Source of the DNA: Actinomycetota bacterium
GTDB taxonomy: Bacteria; Actinomycetota; UBA4738; HRBIN12
Direction of reading: 5' to 3'
DNA: 64,000 nucleotides
Assembly (NCBI GenBank): GCA_040882605.1
Contig: JBBEAY010000062.1
Coordinates: 4,661 to 68,660 of the forward strand
Shown: positions 19,331 through 37,051 of the stretch, piece after piece
Layout: every line of letters starts with the position of its first letter
How positions within the stretch are numbered: the first letter of the stretch is position 1
The notes under the pieces: model-generated
The model's input: only the letters and a program-made list of their open reading frames with translations
Databases searched by the model: none
What the model was told of the DNA's origin: nothing
Position numbers and translations under genes: made by a program

Positions 19331-19337
19331 GCCCGCC

Positions 19338-21094: not shown

Positions 21095-22036
21095 GCCACC
21101 GCTCGCGGTCGCGCCGTCGCCACGAGCTGCCCCGCCGCCCGACACGATGAGCGCGACCGCCACGATGATCAGCGCACCGGCCGCAACCGCCGTTGCGGTG
21201 AGCCGCTCGTCGAGCAGGAGCCAGCCGAGTAGCACCGCGCCCACCGGTGTGACGTAGGCATATGTTGCGACGAGCGACGTTCGGGCGACACGCAGCAGCC
21301 ACAGGTAGGCCGTGAACCCGATCCACGAGCCGATCACGATGAGGTACGCGAGGCTGAGCGCGGATGCTTGCGAGAATGAGTCGAGACGCAAGTCGGCCAG
21401 CTCCCCCGCGAGCGCTCCCGCGACCCAGAACACACCGGCGGCGATCACCATCTCCATGCCGGCCGCCACGAACGGACGTCGTGGAAGCCGTGCATGTCGC
21501 TGATAGATCGAGCCCGCCGCCCACGATGCCGCCGCAGCGAGGGCGACCAGCAGTCCGACGAGGTCGATCGCACCGTCGAGCGCCGCGCCGCCGACGAGTA
21601 GCGCCGCGCCCGCGAAACCGACGGCGAGCCCGGCGACCACGACGGGCGGCTGACGCCGATGAAGCACCACGCGGTCGATCGCCGCGATCCACAGCGGCAC
21701 GGTGGCGATCGCGAGTCCGGCCACCCCCGATGGGATCGTGCGCTCGGCCCACACGATGCCGCCGTTGCCTCCGAACATCAGGAGCACCGCCACGACCGCG
21801 GCGCCCTTCCACTCGGCGGCGCCGGGGCGGTCGCCGCGCCGGTCACCCGCTCGCAGCGCGATGGGCAGCAACAACGCGCCGGCCACGAAGAAGCGGACGC
21901 CGGTCGCGACGAGCGGCGGCATCGTCTCGTTGACGAGCTTGATCGCGATGAACGTGGTGCTCCAGATCACGTAGACGGCGCCGAGCGCCGTCCAGATGCG
22001 CCCTGTGCTCGGCGTCGGCTCGGTCACACGTCCCAT
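21044..22036 (-). CDS. EamA/DMT-family transporter
   Basis: 10-TM DMT pattern (VIWSTTFIAIK...). ATG 22036 overlaps the SDR stop by 13 nt. The low-complexity C-tail runs 51 nt antisense into gatA. Confidence 0.8.
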   Translation of the reverse strand: MGRVTEPTPSTGRIWTALGAVYVIWSTTFIAIKLVNETMPPLVATGVRFFVAGALLLPIALRAGDRRGDRPGAAEWKGAAVVAVLLMFGGNGGIVWAERTIPSGVAGLAIATVPLWIAAIDRVVLHRRQPPVVVAGLAVGFAGAALLVGGAALDGAIDLVGLLVALAAAASWAAGSIYQRHARLPRRPFVAAGMEMVIAAGVFWVAGALAGELADLRLDSFSQASALSLAYLIVIGSWIGFTAYLWLLRVARTSLVATYAYVTPVGAVLLGWLLLDERLTATAVAAGALIIVAVALIVSGGGAARGDGATASGGSSGEQGRAHIEPEIVL

Positions 22037-22824
22037 CCGGCGTCGACCGGTATGTCGTGGCCGGTGATGTTCTTGGCGCCCTCGGAGACCAGGAAGTCGA
22101 TCGCGCATGCGATGTCCTCTTCGTCCACGAACCGGCCGAGCGCGGTCTGCGCGGCGAACTCGGCGTACACCTCATCGGGCGTCGTGCCGAGCCTTGCGGC
22201 CTTGGTGGCGACGATCTTGTCCATGCGCTCCCCGTGGGTCACGTTCGGACAGACGTCGTTCACCGTGATGTCGTGCGGGCCGAGCTCCAAGGCGAGCGTT
22301 CGAGTCAGCCCCCGGACCGCCCATTTGGAGGCCGAGTAACCGCTGCGGTTGCGGTATCCACGGAGCCCGGACGTTCCGGCGATGTTCACGATGCGCCCGC
22401 CGCCGCGCGAGATCATGTACGGGATCACGTGCTTACACGGCAGGAAGGTCCCCACGACGTTGAGGTCGAGGATGGAACGGAACTCCTCTGCCGGATACTC
22501 GTGTGCCGGGGTTTCGATCGGGCCCGTGCCGCCGGCGGTGTTCACGAGGATGTCGATGCCCCCGAAGCGCTCGGCCACGGACGCGGCCATCGCCGCGACC
22601 TGCGCCTCATCAGTGACGTCGCACGCAACGACCATGCTCTCTCGCCCCGTGTGCTTCTCGTCGACGAGTCGCGCGTGCTCCTCGAGCGCGCTCGTTGTGC
22701 GGCCGATGAAGGACACGTGGGCGCCGTCGCGGGCCAGATGCTCCGAGACCACGCCCCCGATCCCTTTCGCGGCGCCGGTGACGATCGCCACCCGGCCCGT
22801 CAGCGGTCGTCCGTTCCCCGTCAT
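22024..22824 (-). CDS. Short-chain dehydrogenase/reductase (classical SDR)
   Basis: VTGAAKGIGG, NTAG and YSASK motifs. The ATG overlaps the IclR stop (ATGA). Confidence 0.85.
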   Translation of the reverse strand: MTGNGRPLTGRVAIVTGAAKGIGGVVSEHLARDGAHVSFIGRTTSALEEHARLVDEKHTGRESMVVACDVTDEAQVAAMAASVAERFGGIDILVNTAGGTGPIETPAHEYPAEEFRSILDLNVVGTFLPCKHVIPYMISRGGGRIVNIAGTSGLRGYRNRSGYSASKWAVRGLTRTLALELGPHDITVNDVCPNVTHGERMDKIVATKAARLGTTPDEVYAEFAAQTALGRFVDEEDIACAIDFLVSEGAKNITGHDIPVDAGWDV

Positions 22825-23693
22825 GTCTTGCCTCCTCTTCGCTTGCTCTTGTCGATCCGGGCCTTGATGTCGCGGACCCCTGGGACCTTCAGACCCAGGG
22901 CCCCGGCCACCTCGAGGGCCGCACGATGCACCCGCTCGATGTCTTCGCACACCCGCGCCGGGGACAGGCGGGCGCTGGGGCCGGCCACACCCAGCGCACA
23001 GACCGCACCGCCGTCATCGTTGAGGACGGGAACCGCGACTCCCCACACACCGACGTTGGTCTCTTCGTAGCTGCCGGCCCATCCTCGGTCCCTTATCCGA
23101 TCAAGCTCTTCGCGCAACGATCGGGGGTCGGTGATCGTCGCGTGACAGAGCTCCTCGAGCGGTCCTTCCAAGATCCTGTCGATCGCGCGGGCGTCCAAGA
23201 AGGCGAGCAGCGCCTTCTGCGACGCGCCGGCGTGCAGGGGCAGCCGCCGGCCCGGCGACACCGACAACCGGAGTGACTGCGAAGTCTCGACCCGTTCGAG
23301 GCATGACCCGCCCTCCTGCCCCGGCGAGACGACGGTGAGCAGGGCCGTCTCGCCGGTGTCGCGCGAGAGGTCCTGTAGCACGGGCATCGCGACGGCGCGC
23401 AGGTCAACGACCGAGCGCGCTCGGTCGCCCAGACGAAGCGACGCCAGGCCGAGCCGGAACCGCTTCGACGTTTCGTCCTGGCTGACGTAGCCGTAGCGCT
23501 TCAGCGCCATGAGGATCCTGTGAGCGGTGGGAACGGGCAACCCGACGGCCCGCGCGACCTCCGAGGCGGTCCACTCCGCGTGGTCCTCGTCGAACAGCTC
23601 GAGGATCGAGAACGTTCTTGCCAGCACCCGGAACGATGTCGCGTTGGAGGCGGTTCCGGCTCGACCCTTCCCGGTCGTCGTGGTGGGGGTCAC
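22821..23693 (-). CDS. IclR-family transcriptional regulator
   Basis: ILELF....WTASEVARAVGLPVPTAHRILMAL HTH followed by an IclR effector domain. Confidence 0.85.
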   Translation of the reverse strand: MTPTTTTGKGRAGTASNATSFRVLARTFSILELFDEDHAEWTASEVARAVGLPVPTAHRILMALKRYGYVSQDETSKRFRLGLASLRLGDRARSVVDLRAVAMPVLQDLSRDTGETALLTVVSPGQEGGSCLERVETSQSLRLSVSPGRRLPLHAGASQKALLAFLDARAIDRILEGPLEELCHATITDPRSLREELDRIRDRGWAGSYEETNVGVWGVAVPVLNDDGGAVCALGVAGPSARLSPARVCEDIERVHRAALEVAGALGLKVPGVRDIKARIDKSKRRGGKT

Positions 23694-23711
23694 GGTGCTC
23701 GGTCGTTCGTC

Positions 23712-25139
23712 CTAGATGTGGACGACGACCATCCGCTCCTCGGTCATCTCGCGGACCGCGTCGTGCGGGCCTTCCTTCGTGTTGCCCGATGCCTTCGTGC
23801 CGCCGTAGGGCATCTGATCGACCCGGAACTGTGGCGCCTGGTTGATCATCACGCTTCCGAAGCGCAGCCGGTCGATCGCCGTCATCGCGCTCGGCAGGTC
23901 GCGCGTGAAGATGCCGGCCTGCAGGCCGTACTCGGTGCCGTTGGCGAGCGCGATCGCCTCGTCGAGACTCTCGAACGGCGCCACTGCGACCACGGGCCCG
24001 AAGACCTCGTTCTTCCACACGGGCTGGTCGAAGCCGACCTCGTCGAGCACGACCGGGCGCAGGTGGCCGTCTCCGAATGTTCCTCCCGCGAGCCGTTGGG
24101 CGCCGGCATCCACGGCGGACTCGACCCAATCCTCGACCCGAGCGCGAGCCTGCGGAGTGATGGAAGGCCCGATGTCGGTCTCTGGGTCTGACGGGTCGCC
24201 CGCCCTCTGGGCTCCGGCGGCGGCCGAGAGCTTCTCAACGAACGAGCTGTGCACGTCTCTGTGGACCATCACGCGCTGCACGCTGATGCACGACTGCCCC
24301 GCGAACGCGTACCCGCTGGCGGCCGACGTCGTCGCGGCCGCGTCGAGGTCGGCGTCGGCGCAGACGATCACAGGGGTCGAGTTCCCGAGCTCGAGGGTGA
24401 CGCGTTTGCGAGCCGCCTTGGCCTTCAGTTCCCAGCCGAGCGCTGCCGATCCGGTGAAGGTGAGCAGACCGACACGATCGTCGGCGATCAGCGCATCGGC
24501 GATCGGACCGGGCTCGCCCACCAGAACCGACATCCATGCGGGCGGGAGTCCCGCCCGATGGAAGGCGCGGACCAGCTCGATCGCGGCGAGCGGCGCCTTG
24601 TCGGCGGGCTTGAGCACGACGCCACATCCGGCCGCGACCGCCGGCCCGATCTTGTGCGCTGCCAATGTGAGCGGGAAGTTGAAGGGTGTGATCGCCGCGA
24701 CCACGCCGACGGGCACCCGCACGGTGAACCCGAGGTGGCCGACACCCGCCGGGTGAGCGTCGAGAGGGATGCCTCTGCCGGCCAGGGTTCGTGCCTCCGC
24801 CGCCGAGAAGATCAAGGTCTGGACGCAGCGATCGGCCTCCATGAGGGCCTGCTTATACGGCTTGCCGTTCTCCCCCGAGATCATGCGTGCGAACGCTTCC
24901 CGTCGATCGCGGACCTCTTCGGCGACACGGTCAAGTATCTCGGCGCGCTCCCACGCCGCAAGGCCCGCCTGCATCGCATCCCACGCCGCGTCGATCGAGG
25001 AGCGGGCCGCTTCGGGGCCCAGCCAGGGCACGGCGCCAACGAGGCGGTCGTCCCAGGGAGAGCGGACCTCGAAGGGTTCGCCCTCCGCCACGTCGTTGCC
25101 TGCCACGACGAGAGGCGTCATCTGCGGTGCGGTCGACAT
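23712..25139 (-). CDS. NAD(P)-dependent aldehyde dehydrogenase
   Basis: ITPFNFPL, FTGS, LELGN and GQSCISVQRV (catalytic Cys). GAAGGAGGA SD precedes ATG 25139. The track ORF is over-extended by 75 aa. Confidence 0.85.
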   Translation of the reverse strand: MSTAPQMTPLVVAGNDVAEGEPFEVRSPWDDRLVGAVPWLGPEAARSSIDAAWDAMQAGLAAWERAEILDRVAEEVRDRREAFARMISGENGKPYKQALMEADRCVQTLIFSAAEARTLAGRGIPLDAHPAGVGHLGFTVRVPVGVVAAITPFNFPLTLAAHKIGPAVAAGCGVVLKPADKAPLAAIELVRAFHRAGLPPAWMSVLVGEPGPIADALIADDRVGLLTFTGSAALGWELKAKAARKRVTLELGNSTPVIVCADADLDAAATTSAASGYAFAGQSCISVQRVMVHRDVHSSFVEKLSAAAGAQRAGDPSDPETDIGPSITPQARARVEDWVESAVDAGAQRLAGGTFGDGHLRPVVLDEVGFDQPVWKNEVFGPVVAVAPFESLDEAIALANGTEYGLQAGIFTRDLPSAMTAIDRLRFGSVMINQAPQFRVDQMPYGGTKASGNTKEGPHDAVREMTEERMVVVHI

Positions 25140-25168
25140 CGAACGGGTCCTCCTTCGCTGCCCTCGGG

Positions 25169-25196
25169 TTGACCGGCAACGCTCGGATGGTAACAT
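25169..25196 (+). promoter_or_regulatory. Near-consensus promoter TTGACC-16 nt-TAACAT for the 7-gene plus-strand operon
   Basis: TTGACC at 25169-25174 and TAACAT at 25191-25196, in the 112-bp divergent intergenic region. Confidence 0.45.
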
Positions 25197-25220
25197 GCGC
25201 CATCTCGGCAGTCGAAAGAG

Positions 25221-25239
25221 CTTCTCATCAAGTGAGAAG
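25221..25239. promoter_or_regulatory. Perfect 7-bp inverted repeat CTTCTCA-5 nt-TGAGAAG overlapping the SD of the first operon gene
   Basis: Seen directly at 25221-25227 and 25233-25239. It lies between the putative TSS and GTG 25252. It is either a candidate IclR operator or an SD-sequestering hairpin. Confidence 0.4.
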
Positions 25240-25251
25240 GGACAGGTACCC

Positions 25252-26211
25252 GTGGATCGACCCGATCTCGAGCTCCTGCGTGGCGCGATCGACATGCACG
25301 CGCACACCGGGCCCGCGCTCTTCCGCAGGCATATCGATGACGCCGCGTTGGCCGAGTACGCCATCCGCTACGGCATGCGCGGCTTCGTCCTGAAGGATCA
25401 CGACGCATCGACCACTGGGCGCGCCTACTACGTGAACCGCATGTTCCCTGAGGTCGAGTCCTTCGGGGCCGTCGTGCTGAACCGCTCGGTCGGCGGGCTG
25501 AACCCGTACGTGGCGGAAGCAGCGATCCACTACGGGGCTCGCGTCGTGTGGATGCCTTCGAACCACTCGAAGTACCACGCCGAGTTCTTCAACATGCCCG
25601 ACTACCCGCAGTTCGGCCGCCCGAAGCCGCAGCTGCCGGGCGATGGCGTCACGGTCTTCGAAGACGATGGGCTCACCCTCACATCGGCTGCGCGGACGAT
25701 CTGCGAGGTAGTGGCCGCCAACGACGTCGCGCTCGCGACGGGACACCTGTCGTTGCCCGAGATCCGGGCGCTCCAGGGTGCGGCGAATGCGGCGGGAGTG
25801 AAGCACTTCATCGTCACCCACGCCAACTGGTCGCTCTGCAGGCTCGACGTTGCCGTGCAGAAGGAGCTGATAGAGGAAGGAGCGACGATCGAGTACGTGG
25901 CGTGCTCATGCGTGTCGCCGATCTTCTGGGAGCAGCAGCCGGGCGAGCTCGCGGAATGGATCATCGAGCTGCAAGGCGAACACCTCGTGTTCGGTTCCGA
26001 TCTCGGTCAGTTCGCAGGCCCTCCCCATCCCGAAGGCCTGCGCATGCTCCTGGCAGCCCTCCTCGACGTGGGAGTGCCCTACGAGTACCTCGAGAAGATG
26101 ACGAAGCGCAATCCCGAGCGCGTGCTGGGTCTCGAGGCGGGCTGGACGCCCGCGATCGAGCCGTCGCTGCCCGACCTGACGCCGGCGCGCCCCGAGGGTT
26201 CGCACCCATGA
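25252..26211 (+). CDS. DUF6282-like / amidohydrolase-superfamily metal-dependent hydrolase
   Basis: The N-terminal IDMHAHTGP metal-binding motif, ...VWMPSNHS... and ...VTHANW... fit a TIM-barrel hydrolase pattern. 319 aa. It is ATGA-coupled to the next gene. Confidence 0.6.
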   Translation: MDRPDLELLRGAIDMHAHTGPALFRRHIDDAALAEYAIRYGMRGFVLKDHDASTTGRAYYVNRMFPEVESFGAVVLNRSVGGLNPYVAEAAIHYGARVVWMPSNHSKYHAEFFNMPDYPQFGRPKPQLPGDGVTVFEDDGLTLTSAARTICEVVAANDVALATGHLSLPEIRALQGAANAAGVKHFIVTHANWSLCRLDVAVQKELIEEGATIEYVACSCVSPIFWEQQPGELAEWIIELQGEHLVFGSDLGQFAGPPHPEGLRMLLAALLDVGVPYEYLEKMTKRNPERVLGLEAGWTPAIEPSLPDLTPARPEGSHP

Positions 26212-27506
26212 CTTCGTTCTGGCACCCGTTCGCCGACATGGCTGCGGTGGAGGTCTCCGGCGAGCTGTCGATCGTGAGGGGAGAGGGTTCGCACGTCTGG
26301 GACGCGGGCGGTCGTCGCTACCTCGACGCCACGGCGAGCCTCTGGTACTGCAACGTGGGGCACGGGCGCTCCGAGATCGCCGATGCGGTCGCGAGGCAGA
26401 TGCGCGAGCTCGAAGCGTTCTCCACGTTCCAGGATCTCACGAACCCGGTGGTCGACGAGCTCGTCGAGCGCATCGCTCGGATCGCTCCAGTTGCCGGCTC
26501 GAAGGTGTTCCTGACGAGTGGTGGCTCGGACTCGATCGATACGGCCACGAAGATGGTCCGCCGGTACTGGCACCTGCGTGGACAGCCCGAGCGCCAGGTG
26601 CTGATCCGGCGAGAGCGCGCGTATCACGGCATGCACGCCGCTGGGACCGCGCTCGGCGGTATCCCCGCCAACGCCGTTGGGCACGGCTCGTTGCTTCCCG
26701 ACGTGGTTGAGGTTCTGTGGGACGACGCCGACTCGCTCCGCGCCACGATCGCCGGGTTGGAAGGGAAGGCCGCCGCCTTCTTCTGCGAGCCGATCATCGG
26801 CGCCGGCGGTGTATTCGCTCCGCCGGCCGGATACCTAGAAGCGGTTCGGCGAGTGTGCCGCGACGCCGGGGTCCTCTTCATCGCCGATGAGGTGATCACC
26901 GGATTCGGCCGGACCGGCGAGTGGTTCGCGAGCACGCGTTGGAATCTCGAGCCCGACCTGGTCACCTGCGCGAAGGGCATCACCAGTGGTTACTTGCCGC
27001 TCGGCGCAGTGATCGCGGCGCCGACGGTCTGGGAGCCCTTCTATGCGGAAGGGGCCGGCATGTGGCGGCACGGCTACACCTACTCCGGACATGCCGCCGT
27101 GGCTGCGGCCGCGATCGCGAACCTCGACATCGTCGAACGTGAGCAGCTGCTTGCGCGAGCGGTCGAGCTCGAGGGCATGCTCGCCGAGGGGCTCGGCGCG
27201 TTGGCCGGCCACGAGCTCGTGAGCGAGGTGCGTGCCGGCACGGGCGTCCTCGCCGCCGTGCAGATCGATCCATCGCGGCTCGAGGCGGACCCCGGGTTGG
27301 TCCAGGCGATCGTGCCGGCCTGTCGCGCGAACAGCGTGATGACGCGGACGCTGGTGACGGGCGCCATCCACATCTCCCCTCCGCTCGTGCTCCAGGACGA
27401 GGAGATCGATGAGCTGGTGAGCGGCCTCTGGGGAGCGCTCGATGACCTTCGGCGTTCTTCCGAGCGGCAGCTCGCCCATCAGACGGAGCCCGGCGAACCC
27501 CGATGA
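26208..27506 (+). CDS. Class-III (omega-type) PLP aminotransferase
   Basis: FWHPFADM..., LWYCNVGHGR, FLTSGGSDSIDTA, FIADEVITGFGRTG and TCAKGITSGYLPLG (PLP Lys). Confidence 0.85.
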   Translation: MTSFWHPFADMAAVEVSGELSIVRGEGSHVWDAGGRRYLDATASLWYCNVGHGRSEIADAVARQMRELEAFSTFQDLTNPVVDELVERIARIAPVAGSKVFLTSGGSDSIDTATKMVRRYWHLRGQPERQVLIRRERAYHGMHAAGTALGGIPANAVGHGSLLPDVVEVLWDDADSLRATIAGLEGKAAAFFCEPIIGAGGVFAPPAGYLEAVRRVCRDAGVLFIADEVITGFGRTGEWFASTRWNLEPDLVTCAKGITSGYLPLGAVIAAPTVWEPFYAEGAGMWRHGYTYSGHAAVAAAAIANLDIVEREQLLARAVELEGMLAEGLGALAGHELVSEVRAGTGVLAAVQIDPSRLEADPGLVQAIVPACRANSVMTRTLVTGAIHISPPLVLQDEEIDELVSGLWGALDDLRRSSERQLAHQTEPGEPR

Positions 27507-27519
27507 CGAGGATCGACCC

Positions 27520-28380
27520 GTGTTCGTGAAGCCGTTCCGCTACGTGCGCGCCGAGAGCTTGGCGCAGGCGTGTGAGGTTCTTCGAACGGCCGATGGGACG
27601 GCGAAGGTCATCGCGGGAGGCCAGAGCTTGCTGCCCATGGCCAACCTCGGCCTGCTCGACCTCGAGGCCGTCGTCGACATCGGCAGCGTGGAAGGCCATC
27701 GAGGAGTGGATGAGAACGACGGGTTCCTCACGATCGGCGCGCTCACCCGACACCGCGATCTGGAGCGCGACCCGACGCTGATCGCGCAACAGCCTCTGAT
27801 CCCGGCGGCGACCTCTTGGATCGGATCCGCCCGCATCCGCACGCGGGGCACGCTGGGCGGTTCCCTCGCTCACTCGGACCCCGCGGCTGAGCTGCCGCTC
27901 GTCATGACGGCCCTCGGGGCCGAGTACGAGCTCACGACCGCAAGCTCCACCCGTGTCGTTCGGGCGGACGAGTTCCACGTCTCGTACTTCACGAACGCGC
28001 TCGCGGAGGACGAGCTGATCGCGGCCGTGCGCGTGCCGGCCCTTGGCCCCGGCTGGGGGTGGGGCTTCGCCGAGATCTCCCGGCGGCGGGGCGATTTCGC
28101 GATCGCCGCCGCCGCAGCGCTCGCGCGTGTCGCGGACGGCCACGTCGTCGAAGCACGCCTCGCGCTCGGCGGCGTGCACGAGCGGCCGATGCGGCTCGCA
28201 GACATCGAGAGCGCCACGACGGGGGCGTCGGCATCCGAGCTCGACGCTCGTATCGGGCCCGTCGAGGGGCTGCAAGCCGTGAGTGATACGAGCGCAACGG
28301 CCGAGCATCGAACGCACGTGGCTCGGGTGCTCGCGCTTCGGGCGCTGACCGACGCGGTTCGACGTGGGGAAGCTGCGTGA
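27520..28380 (+). CDS. Molybdenum hydroxylase FAD-binding (medium, CoxM/XdhB-like) subunit
   Basis: KPFRYVRAESLAQACEVL...KVIAGGQSLLPMANL...GTLGGSLAHSDP. Start taken as GTG 27520. Confidence 0.8.
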   Translation: MFVKPFRYVRAESLAQACEVLRTADGTAKVIAGGQSLLPMANLGLLDLEAVVDIGSVEGHRGVDENDGFLTIGALTRHRDLERDPTLIAQQPLIPAATSWIGSARIRTRGTLGGSLAHSDPAAELPLVMTALGAEYELTTASSTRVVRADEFHVSYFTNALAEDELIAAVRVPALGPGWGWGFAEISRRRGDFAIAAAAALARVADGHVVEARLALGGVHERPMRLADIESATTGASASELDARIGPVEGLQAVSDTSATAEHRTHVARVLALRALTDAVRRGEAA

Positions 28381-28862
28381 GCTCGGCGCACGAAGTGGAG
28401 ACATCGTTGAAGGTGAACGGGGTGGCCGTGAAGGAAACGGCCGGCGCTCATCTGTCCCTTCTCCGCTGGCTCCGGGACATCGCCGGAGTCACCGACCCCA
28501 AGTACGGCTGCGGTGAGGGCGTGTGTGGAACATGCACGGTGCTGGTAGATGGCGAGCCGGTGTCTGCCTGCATCGTCCTCGCGGCACAGGTCGACGGGGC
28601 CGCCGTCACCACGGCGGCGGGCTTGTGCGAGCCCGACGGGTCGCTCGGTCCGTTGCAGAGGGCCTTTCACGAGTGTCACGCAGCCCAATGTGGGTTCTGC
28701 ACCCCTGGCATGTTGATGTGTGCGGCCTCGATGCTCGGCGAGGCCGACCACACGCTTGAGCGCCACGAGATCAGGGAAGGACTGCACGGCAACCTGTGCC
28801 GATGCACCGGGTACGGCCCGATCGTCGACGCGATCGACGCCGCTCAGGGATCCGCGCCATGA
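28377..28862 (+). CDS. Molybdenum hydroxylase [2Fe-2S] (small, CoxS-like) subunit
   Basis: CGEGVCGTCTV and QCGFCTPG...CRCTGY cysteine clusters. Confidence 0.9.
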   Translation: MSSAHEVETSLKVNGVAVKETAGAHLSLLRWLRDIAGVTDPKYGCGEGVCGTCTVLVDGEPVSACIVLAAQVDGAAVTTAAGLCEPDGSLGPLQRAFHECHAAQCGFCTPGMLMCAASMLGEADHTLERHEIREGLHGNLCRCTGYGPIVDAIDAAQGSAP

Positions 28863-31204
28863 GCGAAGTGCGGACCTCCAAGCTCGACGAGCTGCGTGTG
28901 GTGCACCAGCCCCTTCCCCGTCACGATCAGGCCGAGAAGATCGCCGGCACCACGAAGTTCGCCGGCGATCTGGCGTTCGCCGGCATGCTCCATGCCTGCG
29001 TGGTCCGGTCGCAGGTGCCGAGCGCGACGATCACGCGCCGCGACGGCGACGACGCCCGGCGGGTTCCCGGAGTCGTCGCCGTGCTGTTCGGCGAGGACGT
29101 GCCCAACAACGAGATCCGGGTCGACGTGCCGGGCCAGACGGTGGTGGTCGGAGCGTTCCGGGCATCGATGCAGGTGCTGGCGACCGACCGCGTCCGGTTC
29201 CACGGGGAACCGGTCGCGCTGGTGATCGCCGAGACCGAGGACGCGCTCGCCGTGGCGCGCGAGCTGGTGACGATCGAGTTCGATGACCTGCCCGTGGTGA
29301 GCGATCCGGAGCAAGCCCTCGCCGCCGGCGCCTTCCAGGTGCATGACGGCGGCAACCTGCTGGCAGAGTGGCGGATCGACCGGGGCGACGTGGATCCCGC
29401 GTTCGATCGAGCGGACGTCGTCGTCGAGGACGAATACCGCACGCAGTTCGTCGATCACGCCTACCTCGAGCCGGAAGCCGGAGTCGGGTGGCTCGACGAC
29501 GACGGGGTGCTGACCCTCCGCGTGGCGACGCAGGTGGTCGAGCACTACCGCGACGTCGCGAAGATCCTCGGAGTGCCGGATTCCAAAGTCCGCGTCATCG
29601 CGCCCTACGTCGGTGGAGGATTCGGGGGCAAAGAAGACATGACCGTCGAGCCCTACGTCGCCCTGGCCGTCTGGCACACACGCCGGCCGGTCCGCATGCA
29701 GTGGACGCGCAACGAGTCGCTGCTGGCCCGCGCCAAGCGTCATCGCAACGTGATGCGTTACCGCACCGCGGCCTCGGCCGACGGCACGCTGCTCGCCCAC
29801 GACATCGACATCCTCTCCGATGCCGGTGCGTACGCGTACCTCTCAGCGCTCGTGCTCCTTTACTCGACAGTGCACGCCTGTGGACCGTACCGGGTGGGCA
29901 ACGTGCGCATCCGCGCGAGGACGGCGTATACGAACAACCCGCCGACCTCGGCGTTCCGAGGCTTCGGCGGCATGCAGATGGTGCTCGGGTACGAATCGCA
30001 GATCGACGAGGTCGCCAGACGTCTCGAGATCGACCCGGGCGAGATCCGTAAGCGCAACGCGCTCGCCCGCGGCGACCGCCTGCCGGTCGGTCAGGAGCTG
30101 ATCACCGAGGTCCAGCTCGCGCAGACGATCGATGCCGTGCGCGAGCGGGCGGGCGGCAAGCCCACCCCCGCTGGTCCTCGCAAGCGCACCGGACGGGCGA
30201 TCGCCTCGAACATGCAGTCCTACGGGCGGCTCGTGTGGTTGAATGACTCCGCCGCTGCGTGGATCGGGTTCCAGATGGACGGATCGGCGACGGTGCGCTG
30301 TGGCGTCCCGGATATCGGTGGCGGCCAGGCCTCGTCGCTCGCACAGATCGCGTCCGAGATCCTGGCGGTCGACATCGACCGGATCAGCGTGCATTTCGGC
30401 GACAGCGCGCTCACGCCTTTGGCGGGCACGACGACGGCGACTCGTCAGCTGCTGATGTCGGGCAACGCCACCTACGAGGCGGCCACGATGCTGCGCGACG
30501 GCATGCTCGGTGCCGTCGGCGACGAAACCGGTCAGGCGTTCGATTCGCTGCGCATGACGCCTCAGGGAGTGCTCGGGCCCGACGTCACCATGCCGCTCGT
30601 CGACGTGTTGCAGCTGTGCCGGCGTCGGAGCGTTCCGATCGAGGCGCTGGGCACGCACTTCGGCCCCAAGGGAAGAGAGGTCACCCGAGACCTCGAGGGC
30701 GGGCGCATCTTCCCCGACTTCACGTTCGGCACGCACCTCGCCGACGTCGAGGTCGACATCGACACGGGTGAAGTGGAGATCCTCCGGTACATCGCGGCCC
30801 ACGACGTGGGCCGGGCGATCAACCCTCTCTCGGTGGCGGGGCAGATCTCGGGTGCCGCCGTGCAGGGCATAGGGCAGGTGCTCCTCGAGGAGGTCGTGAT
30901 GCAGGATGGCGTCAATCTCACCCCGGGTCTGTTCCAGTACCTGATACCCACCGCGACCGACGTGCCCGACATCGAGACCCTGATCCTTGAATCGGGCGAA
31001 GGCCTCGGGCCCTTCGGCGCCCGCGGCATCGGCGAGCCTCCCATCGGCCCCCCGCTCGGAGCGATCCCCGCGGCCATCGCCGATGCGATCGGCGTTCGCC
31101 CCACGACACTTCCCATCACACCCGAACGCGTGCTTTCGTGTATCGCGGCGGCGACCGCCGCCGCTGGGGTGCGGGGAGCCTCACAGGAGGGAGCGAAGTC
31201 ATGA
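28859..31204 (+). CDS. Molybdenum hydroxylase molybdopterin-binding (large) subunit, xanthine-dehydrogenase/aldehyde-oxidase type
   Basis: 781 aa. It carries the AFRGFGGMQ motif (XDH type) rather than the CODH VAYRCSFR/AYRGAGR loop. GGGQ and GEPP motifs are present. ATGA couplings on both sides. Confidence 0.85.
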   Translation: MSEVRTSKLDELRVVHQPLPRHDQAEKIAGTTKFAGDLAFAGMLHACVVRSQVPSATITRRDGDDARRVPGVVAVLFGEDVPNNEIRVDVPGQTVVVGAFRASMQVLATDRVRFHGEPVALVIAETEDALAVARELVTIEFDDLPVVSDPEQALAAGAFQVHDGGNLLAEWRIDRGDVDPAFDRADVVVEDEYRTQFVDHAYLEPEAGVGWLDDDGVLTLRVATQVVEHYRDVAKILGVPDSKVRVIAPYVGGGFGGKEDMTVEPYVALAVWHTRRPVRMQWTRNESLLARAKRHRNVMRYRTAASADGTLLAHDIDILSDAGAYAYLSALVLLYSTVHACGPYRVGNVRIRARTAYTNNPPTSAFRGFGGMQMVLGYESQIDEVARRLEIDPGEIRKRNALARGDRLPVGQELITEVQLAQTIDAVRERAGGKPTPAGPRKRTGRAIASNMQSYGRLVWLNDSAAAWIGFQMDGSATVRCGVPDIGGGQASSLAQIASEILAVDIDRISVHFGDSALTPLAGTTTATRQLLMSGNATYEAATMLRDGMLGAVGDETGQAFDSLRMTPQGVLGPDVTMPLVDVLQLCRRRSVPIEALGTHFGPKGREVTRDLEGGRIFPDFTFGTHLADVEVDIDTGEVEILRYIAAHDVGRAINPLSVAGQISGAAVQGIGQVLLEEVVMQDGVNLTPGLFQYLIPTATDVPDIETLILESGEGLGPFGARGIGEPPIGPPLGAIPAAIADAIGVRPTTLPITPERVLSCIAAATAAAGVRGASQEGAKS

Positions 31205-32538
31205 CCTACGGCATCGAGGAGTACGAGCGGCGGACCCCCAAGGGCCGACAGGCCTGGGAGAAGATCGCGAAGCTGATCCCAGGGGGAGTCGGGAGCGCGA
31301 TCCAGTTCAAGCCTCCCTATCCGTTGTACCTCGCTGACTCGAAGGGATCCCGCGTATGGGATCTGGATGGCAACGAGTACATCGACTACTCGCTCTGCTA
31401 CGCGGCGATGGTCGCCGGTCACGCTAACCCGGTGATCGTCGAGGCGATCAAGCGCCAGGCCGAGCACGGCACGCTCTACGGCCTGCCGACGACGCTCGCC
31501 GGCGATCTCGCCGAGGAGGTGATCCGCCGCTATCCCGGCGTGATCGAGATGATCCGGTTCACCCAATCCGGTGTCGAAGCCACGCAGACGGCGATCCGGC
31601 TCGCGCGCGCCGCCACCGGCCGCAAGACGATCGTGAAGATCGAGGGGCAGTACCACGGCGGCACCGATCACCTGCTCGTGTCGATCGGCGGAGCTTCCGC
31701 CGATGCCGCCGGGCCCGACGACCACCCGAACGCCACCGCAGACTCGGCTGGGCTGCTCCCGGCTTCCACGCAGTACACGGCCGTCGTGTCGTTCAACGAC
31801 CTCGACATGATGCGCCGGGCGTTCGACGAGCACGATGGCGACGTGGCCGGCGTGATCGTCGAGCCGGCGATGACGAACGGCGGGGTGATCCCTCCGGTGC
31901 CCGGCTACCTCGAGGGCATCCGCGCGCTCTGCACCGACAAGGGTGCCGTGATGATCATGGACGAGGTGAAGCTCGGGTGCCGGATCGCGCCTGGTGGCGC
32001 CACCGAGTATTGGGGCGTGAAGGGAGACCTCGTCACGCTCGCGAAGGCGATCGGTGGCGGAGTTCCGGTCGGCGCCTTCGGTGGCAAGCGTGAGCTCATG
32101 GAGCAGATCAGTCCGCTCGGCCCTGCGGTCCATTTCGGCACGTACAACGCGAATCCGCTGGGCATGGCGGCCGGACTCGCCTGTCTCACGAAGGTCATGA
32201 CCGACGACGCCTACAAGGAGATGACGCGCCTCACCACCCGGCTCGCCGACGGCATGCGCGAGGTCTTCGCGGACAAGGGTGTGACGGCTCACGTCGTGCA
32301 ACTGAACACGCTGGGGGGGCTGTTCTTCGGGCTCGATCGCCAGCCCAACAACTTCCGAGAAGCGGCGATGAACGACGCTGCCAGGTGGGACGACTACTGG
32401 TTCGCCATGTTGGATCGCGGCGTGATCCCGATGGGCTCGGCGTGGTTCGAAGAGTTCTCGATGTCGGCTCAACACACCGACGAGGACGTCGACCGGACGC
32501 TCGAGGCCTTCGAGGACTCGATCGCGGCGATCGCCTGA
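31201..32538 (+). CDS. Class-III aminotransferase, glutamate-1-semialdehyde-2,1-aminomutase-like
   Basis: ...LIPGGV...GSRVWDLDGNEYIDY...FTQSGVEATQTAIRLARA...MDEVKLG...TLAKAIGGG. Confidence 0.8.
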   Translation: MTYGIEEYERRTPKGRQAWEKIAKLIPGGVGSAIQFKPPYPLYLADSKGSRVWDLDGNEYIDYSLCYAAMVAGHANPVIVEAIKRQAEHGTLYGLPTTLAGDLAEEVIRRYPGVIEMIRFTQSGVEATQTAIRLARAATGRKTIVKIEGQYHGGTDHLLVSIGGASADAAGPDDHPNATADSAGLLPASTQYTAVVSFNDLDMMRRAFDEHDGDVAGVIVEPAMTNGGVIPPVPGYLEGIRALCTDKGAVMIMDEVKLGCRIAPGGATEYWGVKGDLVTLAKAIGGGVPVGAFGGKRELMEQISPLGPAVHFGTYNANPLGMAAGLACLTKVMTDDAYKEMTRLTTRLADGMREVFADKGVTAHVVQLNTLGGLFFGLDRQPNNFREAAMNDAARWDDYWFAMLDRGVIPMGSAWFEEFSMSAQHTDEDVDRTLEAFEDSIAAIA

Positions 32539-32584
32539 GGACAGCGAGCGGCGAGGAGAGCGAACGAAAGGCAAGCCGAACGAC

Positions 32585-33778
32585 ATGGCCGTCACCGCGA
32601 CGGGCGCCGACGACGTCACGGTCGAGGCGTTGATCGACGATCCGTATCCGATCTACGCGCGGCTGCGGCACGAGTCGCCCGTGTGCCACGTGCCGGCCGT
32701 CGGTCTGTGGTTCGTGACGCGCTGGGCCGACGTCGTAGCCGCCGCCGAAGACACGGCATGCTTCCCGGCTTCCATGGCCGACTCACCGCTCGACCGCAGC
32801 CTTGGAGGGCGGAACGTCCTCACGGTCGATGGCGGCGAGCACGAGCGCAAGCGCGCGCCGATGGAGAACACACTCCGTCCTCGCAACGTCGAGGCCAGCG
32901 CTCCCGCGATCGTCGAGCGGATCGCGAACGGGCTGATCGACGGGTTCCTCGCCGATGGCGAAGCCGACCTGAAGACCGCGTACTGCGAGCCGCTCGCGGC
33001 GTCCTCGCTCGCCGAGGTGATCGGGCTGCATGGGCTCGACGCGCCTACGTTGCAGCGATGGTTCCACGAGCTCGCGACCGGAACGTCTAACTACGAGGGC
33101 GACCCCGTGAAGCAGCAGGTGGCGGAGCGCACAAGCGCCGAGGTGGACGCCACGCTCCGGCCGATGCTGGCTGCGGTTCTCGAACGACCCGACGGCACCA
33201 TGATCTCCGACATGCTCCATGCGGAGTCCGGCGATCTCGAGGAGAAGATGCGAGGGTTCATGCCGACACTGAAGCTCGCCCTGATCGATGGGCTCCAGGA
33301 GCCGGGCGACGGCCTCGGATCGACGCTCGCCGGCGTTCTCGGGAACGAGGACCAGCGCCCCGTGTTCCTCGATGATCCTGCTGGCCTCGCGCGGCAGGCT
33401 GTGGATGAGGGCATCCGGTGGGTGTCGCCGATCGGAACGCAGGGACGTGCCGCGGGCCACGGTGCATCGGTCGCGGGTGTCGAGATCCCTGAGGGGCAGG
33501 CCGTCGGGCTCATCATCCCGTCGGCCAATCGCGACGAAAGCGTGTGGGGCCCGACCGCGGATCGCTACGACCTCTTCCGAGCGCGCCATGCCAACGCCGC
33601 ATTCGGGTTCGGGCCGCATTTCTGCGTGGGGCACCAGCTCGCGCGCGTGCAGATGCGGACGGGGGTTCGCCTGCTCGCGGAGCGCCTTCCGGGGCTCCAC
33701 CTCGATCCGCAACGGCCACCCGTGTTCCGAGGTTGGGAATACCGGGGCCCAGCGAGCCTGCATGCGAGATGGAGCTGA
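32585..33778 (+). CDS. Cytochrome P450 with atypical I-helix
   Basis: Heme loop FGFGPHFCVGHQLA and ExxR (DEGIRW). The I-helix position reads ALIDGLQEPGDG, i.e. E-P instead of the usual D/E-T. Confidence 0.85.
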   Translation: MAVTATGADDVTVEALIDDPYPIYARLRHESPVCHVPAVGLWFVTRWADVVAAAEDTACFPASMADSPLDRSLGGRNVLTVDGGEHERKRAPMENTLRPRNVEASAPAIVERIANGLIDGFLADGEADLKTAYCEPLAASSLAEVIGLHGLDAPTLQRWFHELATGTSNYEGDPVKQQVAERTSAEVDATLRPMLAAVLERPDGTMISDMLHAESGDLEEKMRGFMPTLKLALIDGLQEPGDGLGSTLAGVLGNEDQRPVFLDDPAGLARQAVDEGIRWVSPIGTQGRAAGHGASVAGVEIPEGQAVGLIIPSANRDESVWGPTADRYDLFRARHANAAFGFGPHFCVGHQLARVQMRTGVRLLAERLPGLHLDPQRPPVFRGWEYRGPASLHARWS

Positions 33779-33857: not shown

Positions 33858-35309
33858 ATGACCGAGTACGAGGCCGTGATCGGGCTCGAGTGTCACGTGG
33901 AGCTCAGCACCGAGACCAAGATGTTCTGCGGATGCCGCAACACGTTCGGCGCTCCGCCCAACACCAACGTCTGCCCGGTGTGCCTCGGGCATCCCGGTTC
34001 CTTACCGGTTCCCAACCGCGAGGCGATCCGGCGCATCATCACGATCGGGCTCGCACTCGGCAGTGAGATCGCGCCGCATTCGCTGTTCCACCGCAAGAAC
34101 TACTTCTACCCCGACATGCCGAAGAACTTCCAGATCAGCCAGTACGACCTGCCGATCTGCGTGGGTGGCCACCTCGACGTGGAGCTTCCCGATGGATCCA
34201 CGAGCCGCGTGGGCATCACGCGCGTGCACATGGAAGAGGACACCGGCAAGACCACACATGCCAGCTCGAGTGGGCGCATCCACGACGCCGACGCGGCGCT
34301 CGTCGACTTCAACAGGGCGGGCGTGCCGCTCGTGGAATGCGTGAGCGAACCCGACATCCGCTCGCCCGAGGAGGCCGGCTCGTACCTGCGTGAGCTTCGC
34401 GTCACGCTCGAGTCGCTCGACGTGAGCGACGTGCGCATGGAGGAAGGCTCGCTCCGCTGCGACGCCAACGTCTCGATGCGTCCGGTGGGCGCTCAGCCCC
34501 TCGGCACTAAAGTCGAGATCAAGAACATGAACTCGGTGCGCTCGCTCGAGCGCGCGCTCGTCTACGAGATCTCGCGGCAGACGAAGGCGCTCGAAGCCGG
34601 TGAGGCGATCGTGCAGGAGACCCGCCACTGGAACGAGGACGCGAGTGCCACGGCTTCGATGCGTTCCAAAGAGGAAGCCTTCGACTACCGATACTTTCCA
34701 GAGCCCGACATCCCGGCGATCGAGCCGGCCGCGGTTTGGATCGAGGAGCTCCGCGCCGCGTTGCCCGAGCTGCCGCGCGCCCGGCGTGAGCGCTACGTCA
34801 TCGAGCACGGGTTGAAGCCCGAGGTGGCCCGCGTGCTGGTGGGCGACCGTGCGGCCTGCGTGGTCTTCGAGGAGACCGTGGAGCTCGGTGCCGACCCCGT
34901 GGCCGCCGCCAACTGGGTGACCCAGGATCTCGCCGGGCTCGCGAACAAGCACGGCGCCGACGCGGCGGCAAGGGTCACTCCGCGACACCTGGCAGACCTG
35001 CTCTCGCTGCTCGCCGACGACAAGGTCAGCGGTGCGGGGGCGAAGCAGGCGCTCGAGGATGCCGTCGAGACCGGCGACGACATCGATGCGATCGTCGAGC
35101 GTCGCGATCTGCGACAGGTCTCCGACTCGGGGGAGCTCGGCGCGATCGTCGAGCAGGTGCTCGTCGGCAACGCCGACGCCGTAGGGAAATTCCGGTCGGG
35201 CAACGAGAGCGTGATCGGCTTCTTGGTGGGGCAGGTCATGAAGGCCTCGGGCGGTTCGGCGAACCCGAAGCTCGCGCAGGAGCTGTTGCGCGAGCGCCTG
35301 AAGAGCTGA
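33858..35309 (+). CDS. gatB: Asp/Glu-tRNA amidotransferase subunit B
   Basis: YEAVIGLECHVELSTETKMFCGC...CPVCLGHPGSLP is a canonical GatB N-terminus. The C-terminal GatB/YqeY domain is present. Confidence 0.95.
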   Translation: MTEYEAVIGLECHVELSTETKMFCGCRNTFGAPPNTNVCPVCLGHPGSLPVPNREAIRRIITIGLALGSEIAPHSLFHRKNYFYPDMPKNFQISQYDLPICVGGHLDVELPDGSTSRVGITRVHMEEDTGKTTHASSSGRIHDADAALVDFNRAGVPLVECVSEPDIRSPEEAGSYLRELRVTLESLDVSDVRMEEGSLRCDANVSMRPVGAQPLGTKVEIKNMNSVRSLERALVYEISRQTKALEAGEAIVQETRHWNEDASATASMRSKEEAFDYRYFPEPDIPAIEPAAVWIEELRAALPELPRARRERYVIEHGLKPEVARVLVGDRAACVVFEETVELGADPVAAANWVTQDLAGLANKHGADAAARVTPRHLADLLSLLADDKVSGAGAKQALEDAVETGDDIDAIVERRDLRQVSDSGELGAIVEQVLVGNADAVGKFRSGNESVIGFLVGQVMKASGGSANPKLAQELLRERLKS

Positions 35310-36649: not shown

Positions 36650-36739
36650 ACCCCCGGCGCCCCCAGGCTCTCGGGCTCTGCGGCGTAAGCTCTGTGCGAG
36701 TGCGTCCGCCGGGCGCCGGTCGATCATGGAGGTGCACAC

Positions 36740-37051
36740 GTGGCCGAATGGATCACCGTCGGCAAGTCCGACGAGGTCGCCGAGGGGGACGCCAACGCCT
36801 TCGACGTGAACGGGACCCAGATCGCGGTGGCCCGCGTCGACGGGGCCTTGCACGCGTTCAGCGACATCTGCACGCACCGTCAGTGCAACCTTTCGCTCGG
36901 GGGTGAGATCGATGGCACCACGATCGAGTGCGAGTGCCACGGCAGCATCTTCGAGATGACGACCGGCGCGGTCGTGCAGGGGCCGGCGAGCGAGCCGATC
37001 GCGACCTATCCGGTGTCCGAAGACGGCGACGATCTGAAGATCGAGGCCTGA
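36740..37051 (+). CDS. Rieske-type [2Fe-2S] ferredoxin
   Basis: CTHRQC...CECHGS (CxH...CxxH). 103 aa. GGAGGTG SD precedes GTG 36740. Confidence 0.85.
   Translation: MAEWITVGKSDEVAEGDANAFDVNGTQIAVARVDGALHAFSDICTHRQCNLSLGGEIDGTTIECECHGSIFEMTTGAVVQGPASEPIATYPVSEDGDDLKIEA

Follow-up and report, generated by a model that had tools for sequence, protein, structure and literature searches.

A DUF6282 and molybdenum hydroxylase gene cluster of uncultured Actinomycetota with a possible role in the breakdown of histamine-type amines

The subject of this study is a seven-gene operon (positions 25252-33778) within a 64,000-nucleotide stretch of DNA from an Actinomycetota bacterium (GenBank assembly GCA_040882605.1, contig JBBEAY010000062.1, positions 4,661 to 68,660 of the forward strand; the whole stretch is hereafter called the window). 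It encodes a three-subunit molybdenum (Mo) hydroxylase (MoM-MoS-MoL), a member of the DUF6282 family, two class-III aminotransferases (AT1 and AT2) and a cytochrome P450. Comparison with related loci suggests that the window carries one variant of a widespread cluster of uncultured Actinomycetota which may serve the Mo-dependent breakdown of a histamine-type amine, and we put the probability of this reading at roughly 40%. A more doubtful part of the proposal is that MoM-MoS-MoL and DUF6282 together would cleave the imidazole ring independently of O2, by a water-based hydroxylation of imidazole-4-acetate followed by action of DUF6282 on the resulting 2-oxo-imidazoline/imidazolone ring. An earlier sequence-only reading had found no pathway that it could name for these genes. 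No characterised pathway was indeed matched, but a link to histamine had been missed: the core of the cluster adjoins a histamine dehydrogenase in several relatives and the classical genes for ring degradation are absent. The same reading had suggested that the genes act on an N-heterocycle bearing an amino group, or on an amine that yields an aldehyde, by way of hydroxylation, hydrolytic ring opening, transamination and aldehyde oxidation; this catabolic logic fits all of the findings, although histamine and imidazole had not been considered.

The seven genes form a tightly packed operon on the plus strand. The DUF6282 gene (25252-26211) comes first and starts with GTG, a start that is backed by 17 homologues beginning at the same residue (M-DRPDLELL). 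It is followed by AT1 (26208-27506), the FAD subunit MoM (most likely 27520-28380; the longest open reading frame begins at 27442), the 2Fe-2S subunit MoS (28377-28862), the Mo subunit MoL (28859-31204), AT2 (31201-32538) and the P450 (32585-33778). As had been noted before, four of the junctions are start-stop overlaps, of the ATGA type at 26208, 28859 and 31201 and of the GTGA type at 28377, and the remaining two are gaps of 13 nt before MoM and 46 nt before the P450. No terminator-like site was found on the operon strand within 25252-33778, the sole site in this range being located on the opposite strand. The window has a G+C content of about 68-70% and its coding frames are readily seen by GC3. 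Both 2Fe-2S cysteine motifs, the AFRGFGG loop and catalytic Glu of MoL, the P450 heme loop and both pyridoxal phosphate (PLP) lysines are intact. Every family assignment of the sequence-only reading was upheld by Pfam in the profile and structure-based searches that it had recommended, and none of the operon proteins reached a curated equivalog cut-off of NCBIfam.

A gene-neighbourhood survey, which had likewise been recommended, recovered the arrangement at 57-97% protein identity in 80 independent genome loci. These were obtained from a scan of one genome per GTDB species and all belong to metagenome-assembled genomes (MAGs), labelled as Actinomycetota, Streptosporangiaceae, Acidimicrobiia or Solirubrobacterales with a few archaeal ones; many of the contigs are truncated. 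Genes were mapped across the loci by tblastn with the window proteins, AT2 being counted as present at 70% identity or more and the divergently encoded short-chain dehydrogenase/reductase (SDR) at 60% or more. The SDR occurred in 56, the IclR-family regulator in 54 and MoL in 52 of the 80 loci. Any class-III aminotransferase was present in 62 loci, a third type, termed c5, in 32, AT1 in 27 and AT2 in 19, and the counts were 26 for the aldehyde dehydrogenase (ALDH), 14 for the P450 and 13 for an alanine dehydrogenase encoded directly after AT1. The conserved core consists of SDR, IclR, DUF6282 and MoM-MoS-MoL; AT1, AT2, ALDH, alanine dehydrogenase and P450 are accessory modules. In loci without AT1, the DUF6282 and MoM genes are translationally coupled to each other, and three loci (L007-L009) match the window gene for gene at 73-97% identity. 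The operon packing supports the earlier view of the seven genes as one unit, but the evolutionary unit is the conserved core and not the seven genes.

The histamine link stems from a 738-residue flavoprotein that is encoded beside the core, within 10 kb, in eight distinct loci of the 80 (L001/L048, L024, L025, L036, L038, L042, L043 and L045). Judged by its sequence, this protein is a histamine dehydrogenase (HADH): it scored 1033 bits over near full length against histamine dehydrogenase of Nocardioides simplex (3k30) and 884 bits against the Rhizobium enzyme, but just 538 bits against trimethylamine dehydrogenase. A trimethylamine dehydrogenase-type amine dehydrogenase or a ring/ene-reductase had been expected beforehand and was rejected on these scores. 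In L001 the HADH gene overlaps the stop codon of MoL, and L045 combines the architecture of the window with HADH, its ALDH, AT1 and MoL being 73, 74 and 80% identical to those of the window. Between the window and the HADH-type loci, DUF6282 is 78-85% and MoL 72-80% identical; together with the invariant active-site residues and the shared operator described below, this suggests that the core does the same job across the architectures. A search seeded on HADH revealed IclR, SDR, DUF6282 and MoM-MoS-MoL alongside in two of three MAG relatives (L098, L099), where the gene order is NCS1 permease, CN-hydrolase, 4-OT-type tautomerase, class-III aminotransferase, HADH, SDR-IclR and DUF6282-MoM-MoS-MoL, in part followed by a GMC oxidoreductase.

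In the cultured Mycolicibacterium goodii and Hoyosella, the orthologous HADH lies within a classical Hin-type cluster together with ALDH, a LysR regulator, APC and NCS1 permeases, the flavin monooxygenase (FMO)-like HinF, the RidA protein HinL, the DUF1028 protein HinH, the M20 hydrolase HinG and the aspartase HinI. The roles of the Hin cluster genes have been described (PMC6467879, PMC8231116), and HinC of Pseudomonas is a histamine-pyruvate aminotransferase (PMC6467879). The HADH orthologues of the eight loci are 66-74% identical to the M. goodii protein. Homologues of the HADH-linked ALDH of M. goodii type occur at 63-65% identity in six further loci of Solirubrobacterales type, and the NCS1 permease (about 50%) and GMC oxidoreductase (54-55%) of the M. 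goodii cluster also have homologues among the related loci. HinF, HinL, HinH, HinG and HinI, in contrast, gave no tblastn match when the M. goodii proteins were used as queries against the window and 86 related loci (L001-L086). The simplest reading is that MoM-MoS-MoL and DUF6282 with their helpers have displaced the O2-dependent imidazole-acetate monooxygenase and its hydrolases in a non-orthologous manner.

The domain composition of the Mo enzyme is that of the Mo-hydroxylase superfamily, with all three cofactor modules represented by Pfam domains above the gathering score: FAD_binding_5 and CO_deh_flav_C in MoM (286-288 residues in the orthologues), Fer2_2 and Fer2 with both [2Fe-2S] cysteine motifs in MoS, and Ald_Xan_dh_C, MoCoBD_1 and MoCoBD_2 in MoL, a single chain of 781 residues. 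AFRGFGG occupies residues 365-371 of MoL and the catalytic Glu, E726, lies in GIGEPP; these features are kept in 46-50 of 50 orthologues, and the conserved residues include E259, R367, F369 and E726. MoL thereby retains equivalents of bovine Glu802 (directly after GGGFGGK), Phe914 (in FRGFGG) and the catalytic Glu1261. The equivalent of bovine Arg880 is Tyr335 in 49 of the 50 orthologues, and the segment with Phe1009/Thr1010 is deleted in the alignments. The best NCBIfam match was pucD with 490 bits (cut-off 784), ahead of XdhA with 449 (cut-off 780) and xdhB with 313 (cut-off 850). Xanthine dehydrogenase (XDH) sensu stricto was rejected on the exchange of Arg880, the deletion and these scores below cut-off, the Glu802 equivalent being present. 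An aerobic CO dehydrogenase had already been dismissed in the sequence-only reading from the AFRGFGG motif, rightly so, since form I CoxL is marked by VAYRCSFR and its model TIGR02416 scored 213 bits against a cut-off of 991. Among solved structures, MoL is nearest to 4-hydroxybenzoyl-CoA reductase, with 300 bits, and to nicotinate dehydrogenase of Eubacterium barkeri, the two chains of which gave 296 and 190 bits. From these comparisons, MoL is predicted to be a hydroxylase of new specificity; it looks like the ring hydroxylases (nicotinate dehydrogenase, PucD and 4-hydroxybenzoyl-CoA reductase) and is proposed to act on the imidazole ring. A literature search yielded nothing relevant on a Mo-dependent imidazole-acetate step or on similar clusters of Mo hydroxylase, aminotransferase and amidohydrolase genes.

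It is also conceivable, if unlikely, that the Mo enzyme is an aldehyde oxidoreductase which would act on the aldehydes produced by AT1, HADH or AT2 (imidazole acetaldehyde, aminoaldehydes), so that no heterocycle is hydroxylated. DUF6282 would then act separately on a carboxylate intermediate, by hydrolysis, hydration or the opening of a lactone. Imidazole acetaldehyde is a substrate of mammalian aldehyde oxidase, and the HADH-type loci, which are usually without ALDH and have HADH right after MoL, would fit two consecutive steps of this kind. The FAD and Fe-S subunits point in the same direction, as do the distant DUF6282 members located near aldolases and LigK-like genes, where lactonase or hydratase chemistry of the LigI/LigJ type would be expected. 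However, 26 loci including the window hold both ALDH and MoM-MoS-MoL, and MoL matches the ring hydroxylases (pucD 490, XdhA 449, NdhL plus NdhM 486 bits) far better than the aldehyde oxidoreductases (359 bits for pterin aldehyde oxidoreductase, 268 for PaoC). In addition, the XDH-type Glu after GGGFGGK is invariant in MoL but absent from the aldehyde oxidoreductase of D. gigas in the alignments, and with HinF missing the clusters hold no other candidate for ring activation.

In two loci (L001, 1-7222; L005, 1-6628), the core is joined by another, divergent Mo hydroxylase, the MoL of which is about 52-55% identical, together with an Amdase/Asp-Glu-racemase-family protein, an F420-dependent LLM oxidoreductase and a CoA-transferase. 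This suggests either that the ring is hydroxylated twice in succession or that a second heterocyclic compound is used. The gene set, which is reminiscent of the two-step hydroxylation of pyridine carboxylates, bears on the idea that the substrate is another N-heteroaromatic compound of the pyridine, pyrimidine or vitamin-B6 type. Hydroxylation by the Mo enzyme next to the ring nitrogen would then be followed by ring reduction and opening by DUF6282, as in the enamidase, dihydropyrimidinase and cyclic-imidase pathways, with the aminotransferases acting on an aminomethyl side chain or on the ring-opening product. We consider this rather improbable. Its attraction lies in the relationship of MoL to nicotinate dehydrogenase of E. 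barkeri, the pathway of which has an enamidase, in the CN-hydrolase, M20 and NCS1 genes, which mirror the reductive pyrimidine pathway, and in a DUF6282 gene of Paracoccus that adjoins a dihydroorotate-dehydrogenase-like gene. On the other hand, the flavoprotein once suspected to be the reductase turned out to be a histamine dehydrogenase, no curated nicotinate, xanthine or pyrimidine model was reached, and MoL has Tyr in place of Arg880 and is without the Phe1009/Thr1010 segment. As the window is without a ring reductase, the reductive pyrimidine, enamidase and isonicotinate-type readings were kept merely as rivals to the histamine-type route.

The first gene product had been described as a DUF6282-like metal hydrolase, and both parts of this description were supported: it matches PF19799 (DUF6282) with E = 1.4e-59 over the full model, and its predicted structure matches amidohydrolases in Foldseek. 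More than 1300 homologues were found, the top 120 at 76-93% identity and all metagenomic. Among 67 orthologues, H16, H18, K48, H50, H109, H165, H190, E214 and D250 are invariant (67/67) and H105 is conserved in 66; the HxH, H, H and D residues are, by our reading, the predicted metal ligands. The AlphaFold model (pTM 0.79) shows alternating strands and helices. Its top Foldseek matches were dihydroorotase, renal-dipeptidase-like proteins, allantoinase, phosphotriesterase (PTE)-like lactonases and LigI, about equal at TM scores of 0.5-0.58. Decarboxylases were likewise among the matches; the similarity is generic for the amidohydrolase superfamily, and no sub-family stands out. A sequence search against all PDB chains gave nothing significant, and a literature search for DUF6282 found no paper. 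DUF6282 is thus a predicted metal-dependent TIM-barrel hydrolase of the amidohydrolase superfamily and looks like a cyclic-amide hydrolase.

More distant members of the family occur in other settings. A search of plasmids for cultured relatives found only DUF6282 proteins of 27-36% identity, none of which adjoins a Mo hydroxylase in the seven contexts read; their clusters are heterogeneous and of a carboxylate type, and contain genes for TRAP transporters and for aldolases of the HpcH or LigK-like kind as well as a dihydroorotate-dehydrogenase-like gene. On plasmid pTAV3 of Paracoccus versutus (L087, 3196-10554), DUF6282 is operonic with the latter gene, an HpcH-type aldolase and a TRAP transporter, and on pTHEOS01 of Thermus oshimai (L088, 6330-10996) its neighbours encode a LigK-like aldolase, a catechol dioxygenase and a PIG-L deacetylase. 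These two members, at 31-36% identity, hint by analogy at LigI/LigJ-like or dihydroorotase-like chemistry on carboxylates in the wider family. In six loci from MAGs of Acidimicrobiia / Ca. Spongiisociaceae (L080-L083, L085 and L086), a DUF6282 protein with 57-58% identity accompanies another Mo hydroxylase (MoL only about 30%), a CoxG-like protein, a decarboxylase of the UbiD family and an ABC transporter of the BMP family (nucleoside type), which is a separate system around the same hydrolase family. DUF6282 at 61-63% identity was also found on contigs filed as archaeal MAGs (L075 and L078; Nitrososphaerota, Bathyarchaeota), reflecting either horizontal transfer or a binning error. Two copies of DUF6282-IclR-SDR per MAG were observed twice (L025 and L027 in MFD04428.bin.2.23; L070 and L071), and the L027 copy has no adjacent Mo hydroxylase.

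AT1 carries Pfam domain Aminotran_3 and the PLP lysine K256. As expected from its earlier designation as an omega-transaminase, among solved structures it is nearest to putrescine, amine and polyamine:pyruvate transaminases (281-299 bits), and all NCBIfam scores were below cut-off. The sequence suggests a SpuC-like omega-amine aminotransferase of the pyruvate type, the use of pyruvate being predicted from the adjacent alanine dehydrogenase of the sister loci. This relationship favors a route from polyamines, in which AT1 would convert putrescine, cadaverine or spermidine to an aminoaldehyde that closes to a cyclic imine, the Mo enzyme would oxidise the imine to a lactam, DUF6282 would act as the lactamase, and AT2 with ALDH would take the omega-amino acid to a dicarboxylate. 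Mammalian aldehyde oxidase is able to oxidise a cyclic imine to the lactam. Such a route would use the two aminotransferases, hydroxylase, hydrolase and ALDH once each, and window-type loci are flanked by Pot-like ABC transporters; the logic from cyclic amine via lactam to omega-amino acid has precedent (PMC9477822). However, the recurrent HADH, the HinD-like ALDH and the NCS1 association would be left unexplained, MoL keeps the aromatic-stacking Phe and the XDH-type Glu and resembles enzymes acting on aromatic rings, no bacterial precedent was found in the literature, and ordinary aminoaldehyde dehydrogenases would make the detour needless. The polyamine-lactam route was our first idea, but was demoted when the accessory flavoprotein proved to be histamine dehydrogenase, and we now regard it as improbable.

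AT2 aligns end to end with five solved glutamate-1-semialdehyde aminomutases (GSAMs; 303-328 bits) and keeps the PLP lysine. It passes NF000818, a broad PRK00062 subfamily model, with 428 bits (cut-off 398), but remains below the cut-off of the hemL model TIGR00713 (419 against 527 bits). The GSAM motif GGVNSPVR is replaced by GGVGSAIQ, in which Q is kept in 18 of 24 orthologues, so that the substrate-carboxylate-binding Arg is lost, and a 7-residue insertion at about 185-200 falls in what we take to be the GSAM gating loop. The identity of AT2 as HemL was rejected on the model score, the lost Arg and the insertion. The earlier label 'GSA-aminomutase-like' holds with regard to membership of the GSAM clade, but not for an aminomutase function; with the carboxylate-binding Arg missing, AT2 is rather to be seen as an aminotransferase paralogue. 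Its orthologues reach 75-97% identity. In a window-type metagenome locus (L101, 11969-12394), a glyoxalase/VOC-family gene lies between alanine dehydrogenase and MoM and might indicate a 2-oxoaldehyde (methylglyoxal-like) intermediate after ring opening; alongside this observation, the best NCBIfam match of the window ALDH is lactaldehyde dehydrogenase (433 bits, cut-off 650).

The divergent unit consists of ALDH, IclR, SDR and a DMT transporter, as had been stated before, and the Pfam matches were Aldedh, IclR, adh_short and EamA. All four genes are encoded on the minus strand. The first is the NAD(P)-dependent ALDH (23712-25133; Aldedh, E = 5e-134), which belongs to the accessory modules and co-occurs with AT1. 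It is followed by the two core genes for the IclR-family transcriptional regulator (22821-23693; HTH_IclR and IclR_C) and the SDR (22024-22827; adh_short and adh_short_C2), the latter having its best NCBIfam matches, all below cut-off, in the glucose-1-dehydrogenase, FabG and 3-hydroxybutyrate dehydrogenase subfamilies. The last gene encodes the DMT/EamA-type transporter (21044-22000; EamA, E = 3e-35); its start is uncertain, as the open reading frame extends to 22108, and only L007-L009 have an orthologue at this place, with 84-86% identity.

Between the two units lies an intergenic region of 118 bp. On the plus strand, a consensus scan identified a promoter-like site in front of the DUF6282 gene (25169-25196), with TTGACC at 25169-25174 as -35 and TAACAT at 25191-25196 as -10 element. 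The -35 element and the -10-containing block GGATGGTA[A/G]CAT are kept in an alignment of 30 orthologous intergenic regions; of 85 loci searched, 25 contain the block. Two palindromes follow between the -10 element and the start codon, TCTCGGCAGTCGAAA at 25203-25217 and CTTCTCA-TCAAG-TGAGAAG at 25221-25239, the latter a perfect 7+7 palindrome with the pattern core at 25223-25237. The pattern TYTCR-N5-YGARA has just two matches in the 64-kb window, both of them in tandem in this intergenic region. In 60 of the 85 loci, the DUF6282 start is preceded at a distance of 26-92 nt by the proximal palindrome, which has conserved arms and a variable spacer; by our rough estimate, 1-2 loci would be expected by chance. 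The palindrome occurs in all architectures including the histamine dehydrogenase type. Conserved arms, a free spacer and this wide distribution are the signature of a protein operator, presumably for IclR, and the tandem palindromes are a probable IclR operator pair, as predicted from sequence. The region thus has the features of an IclR operon, namely a regulator with HTH_IclR and IclR_C, a divergent target and palindromes in the shared promoter region. An operator common to all architectures also suggests that these answer to the same kind of signal.

Taken together, a route for the histamine-type amine can be proposed. AT1 would convert the amine to the aldehyde with pyruvate, which alanine dehydrogenase could regenerate in sister loci, HADH taking over this step in other loci; ALDH would then oxidise the aldehyde to imidazole-4-acetate. 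MoM-MoS-MoL would hydroxylate the imidazole ring and take the oxygen from water, replacing the O2-dependent FAD monooxygenase HinF. C2, which corresponds to C8 of purines and is the carbon of greatest electrophilicity, is the most likely site. Hydroxylation would give a cyclic ureide or amide, to be opened by the translationally coupled DUF6282 hydrolase. The product, a vicinal amino/oxo C4 compound, may be handled by AT2 (elsewhere by the c5 type), the 3-oxoacid-type SDR and ALDH and yield C4 central metabolites such as aspartate or malate, for example from 4-amino-3-oxobutanoate via a 3-hydroxy compound (SDR) and a semialdehyde (aminotransferase) to the level of malate or aspartate (ALDH). 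Such a C4 skeleton would explain why a class-III aminotransferase for terminal amines is near-constant, even where HADH removes the side-chain amine, and likewise the GSAM-clade aminotransferase, the SDR in the core and the tautomerase and CN-hydrolase in some architectures. As a speculative further step, the P450 might demethylate compounds such as methylhistamine or methylimidazole-acetate and thereby feed the core. IclR would control both divergent units through the tandem palindromes at 25203-25239.

Several points weigh against this route. Only eight of the 80 loci have HADH within 10 kb, and the window itself is without it. The ALDH of the window is just 33% identical to the HADH-linked ALDH of M. 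goodii and not an orthologue of the HinD type, and window-type loci tend to have Pot-like polyamine ABC transporters or a DMT transporter, not the NCS1 and APC permeases of the histamine clusters. The CN-hydrolase and tautomerase of the HADH-type loci are absent from the window, so that the downstream chemistry may differ between the architectures. MoM and MoS have their best scores against subunits of archaeal glyceraldehyde oxidoreductase, an aldehyde oxidoreductase, and no XDH-family enzyme is known to hydroxylate a free imidazole. The distant DUF6282 proteins (30-36%) in carboxylate-, aldolase- and lactone-type clusters leave hydratase or lactonase chemistry open. Finally, the steps after entry, from aldehyde oxidation to the P450, are predictions, as are all enzyme activities and the substrate.

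The P450 matches Pfam p450 and has an intact heme loop, FGFGPHFCVG. Its best solved relatives over full length are 9ia1 (227 bits), 6g71 (212 bits) and GcoA (205 bits), 9ia1 being cited in a preprint on a P450 O-demethylase. The protein appears to be related to aromatic O-demethylases of the GcoA/CYP255 and CYP1232 kind, the similarity being moderate. Orthologues with 58-82% identity were found in 13-14 loci, and in L012 and L056 the gene shares a start-stop overlap with MoL. A Rieske-type [2Fe-2S] ferredoxin (36689-37051, plus strand; Pfam Rieske) and a ferredoxin-NAD(+) reductase (37065-38306, plus strand; Pfam Pyr_redox_2 and Reductase_C, AndAa/HcaD-like) are encoded outside the operon, 3 kb downstream of the P450 and past gatB and an MFS transporter gene. 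In L046 (19438-19698), a Rieske ferredoxin with 49% identity starts 8 nt after the orthologous P450. The ferredoxin and reductase may be the redox partners of this P450.

Natural-product pathways, too, contain P450s and GSAM-like aminotransferases, and weak matches to GntE, PctV-like and ForI-type aminotransferases were obtained, which might suggest a biosynthetic operon tailoring a secondary metabolite. This is very improbable. No polyketide synthase, nonribosomal peptide synthetase, terpene or ribosomally synthesized and post-translationally modified peptide core enzyme is present in the window or the loci, the P450 and AT2 are dispensable in most loci, and IclR, ALDH, uptake transporters, alanine dehydrogenase and histamine dehydrogenase are a typical catabolic context.

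The cluster (21044-33778, 12.7 kb) is located between gatC-gatA (19278-21094) and gatB (33858-35309), which encode Glu-tRNA(Gln) amidotransferase. The junction at the gatA side recurs in L007-L009, and in L007 the P450 is likewise followed by gatB. Other relatives have different flanks, so that the cluster seems to have been inserted into the gatCAB operon in the lineage of the window. At the gatA side, the convergent DMT gene shares 51 nt with the 3' end of gatA; at the other side, gatB lies 79 nt past the P450 with no terminator-like site, so that it may be read through from the catabolic operon. Further downstream, the window encodes a CrtO-like protein of the flavin amine-oxidoreductase family and, after it, two aminomethyltransferases of the GcvT family (41552-46741). 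One of the latter (43194-44408) is nearest in NCBIfam to the DmdA-type demethylase, with 364 bits against a cut-off of 410, and these genes may form a separate tetrahydrofolate-dependent demethylation module. As further genes of catabolic appearance, an ALDH with 43% identity to the HADH-linked ALDH of M. goodii and, after it, a LigB-type extradiol dioxygenase (53035-55773), a group-II PLP decarboxylase resembling diaminobutyrate/aspartate decarboxylases (57282-58736) and a second, unrelated P450 on the minus strand (60240-61850) were also noted.

Each component of the cluster belongs to a known superfamily, and an IclR-governed catabolic operon for amines or N-heterocycles built on a Mo hydroxylase is a familiar design. 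The searched literature describes neither this set of genes nor the specificity of its hydroxylase, nor does it assign a function to DUF6282 or mention the apparent replacement of the HinF route. If the proposal is correct, it would provide a first function for DUF6282, a family with more than a thousand close metagenomic homologues and no literature, and the free imidazole ring would be a new class of substrate for bacterial molybdenum hydroxylases. It would also represent a second route of histamine/imidazole-acetate mineralisation, one that needs no O2 for ring activation, in lineages without cultured members among the GTDB species representatives. Its testable parts would be the operator sequence, the regulator and four small expressible enzyme sets. 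Should the substrate be a different one, the map of core and accessory genes and the conserved operator would still define a new and widespread module of N-compound catabolism in soil actinobacteria.

Among known systems, the Hin pathway (HinCDFLHGI of P. putida U and P. aeruginosa; M. goodii, Hoyosella) shares the proposed opening logic, from the amine via imidazole acetaldehyde to ALDH. In both cases the amine step would fall to a class-III aminotransferase or a histamine dehydrogenase, and both are regulated catabolic clusters. They differ in that MoM-MoS-MoL, DUF6282 and SDR, in some loci with a tautomerase, a CN-hydrolase and a class-III aminotransferase, stand in place of HinF, HinL, HinH, HinG and HinI, and in that the core cluster has an IclR regulator whereas the Hin regulator is LysR. 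With PucCDE, XdhABC and R. capsulatus XDH, the Mo enzyme has in common the three cofactor modules, GGGFGGKE, AFRGFGG and the catalytic Glu in GIGEPP; unlike for bacterial xanthine dehydrogenases, however, there are no purine-catabolic genes in the neighbourhood of the window enzyme, and its scores are far below the cut-offs (490 against 784). AT2 is encoded in a catabolic operon, not among heme biosynthesis genes as HemL would be. In contrast to GcoA/CYP255 systems, no GcoB-type reductase adjoins the window P450, and its context is amine/N-heterocycle catabolism rather than lignin aromatics. From nicotinate dehydrogenase of E. barkeri, to which MoL is closest among solved proteins (PDB 3hrd; NdhL 296 and NdhM 190 bits), the window enzyme is set apart by a large subunit made of one 781-residue chain, the order M-S-L, Glu instead of Leu after GGGFGGK and Tyr335 at the place of an Arg. 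In nicotinate fermentation, a Mo hydroxylase is followed by a ring-opening enzyme of the amidohydrolase superfamily, the enamidase, and by a dehydrogenase. The window differs from this pathway in being without 6-hydroxynicotinate reductase and in having aminotransferases as an integral part of the cluster.

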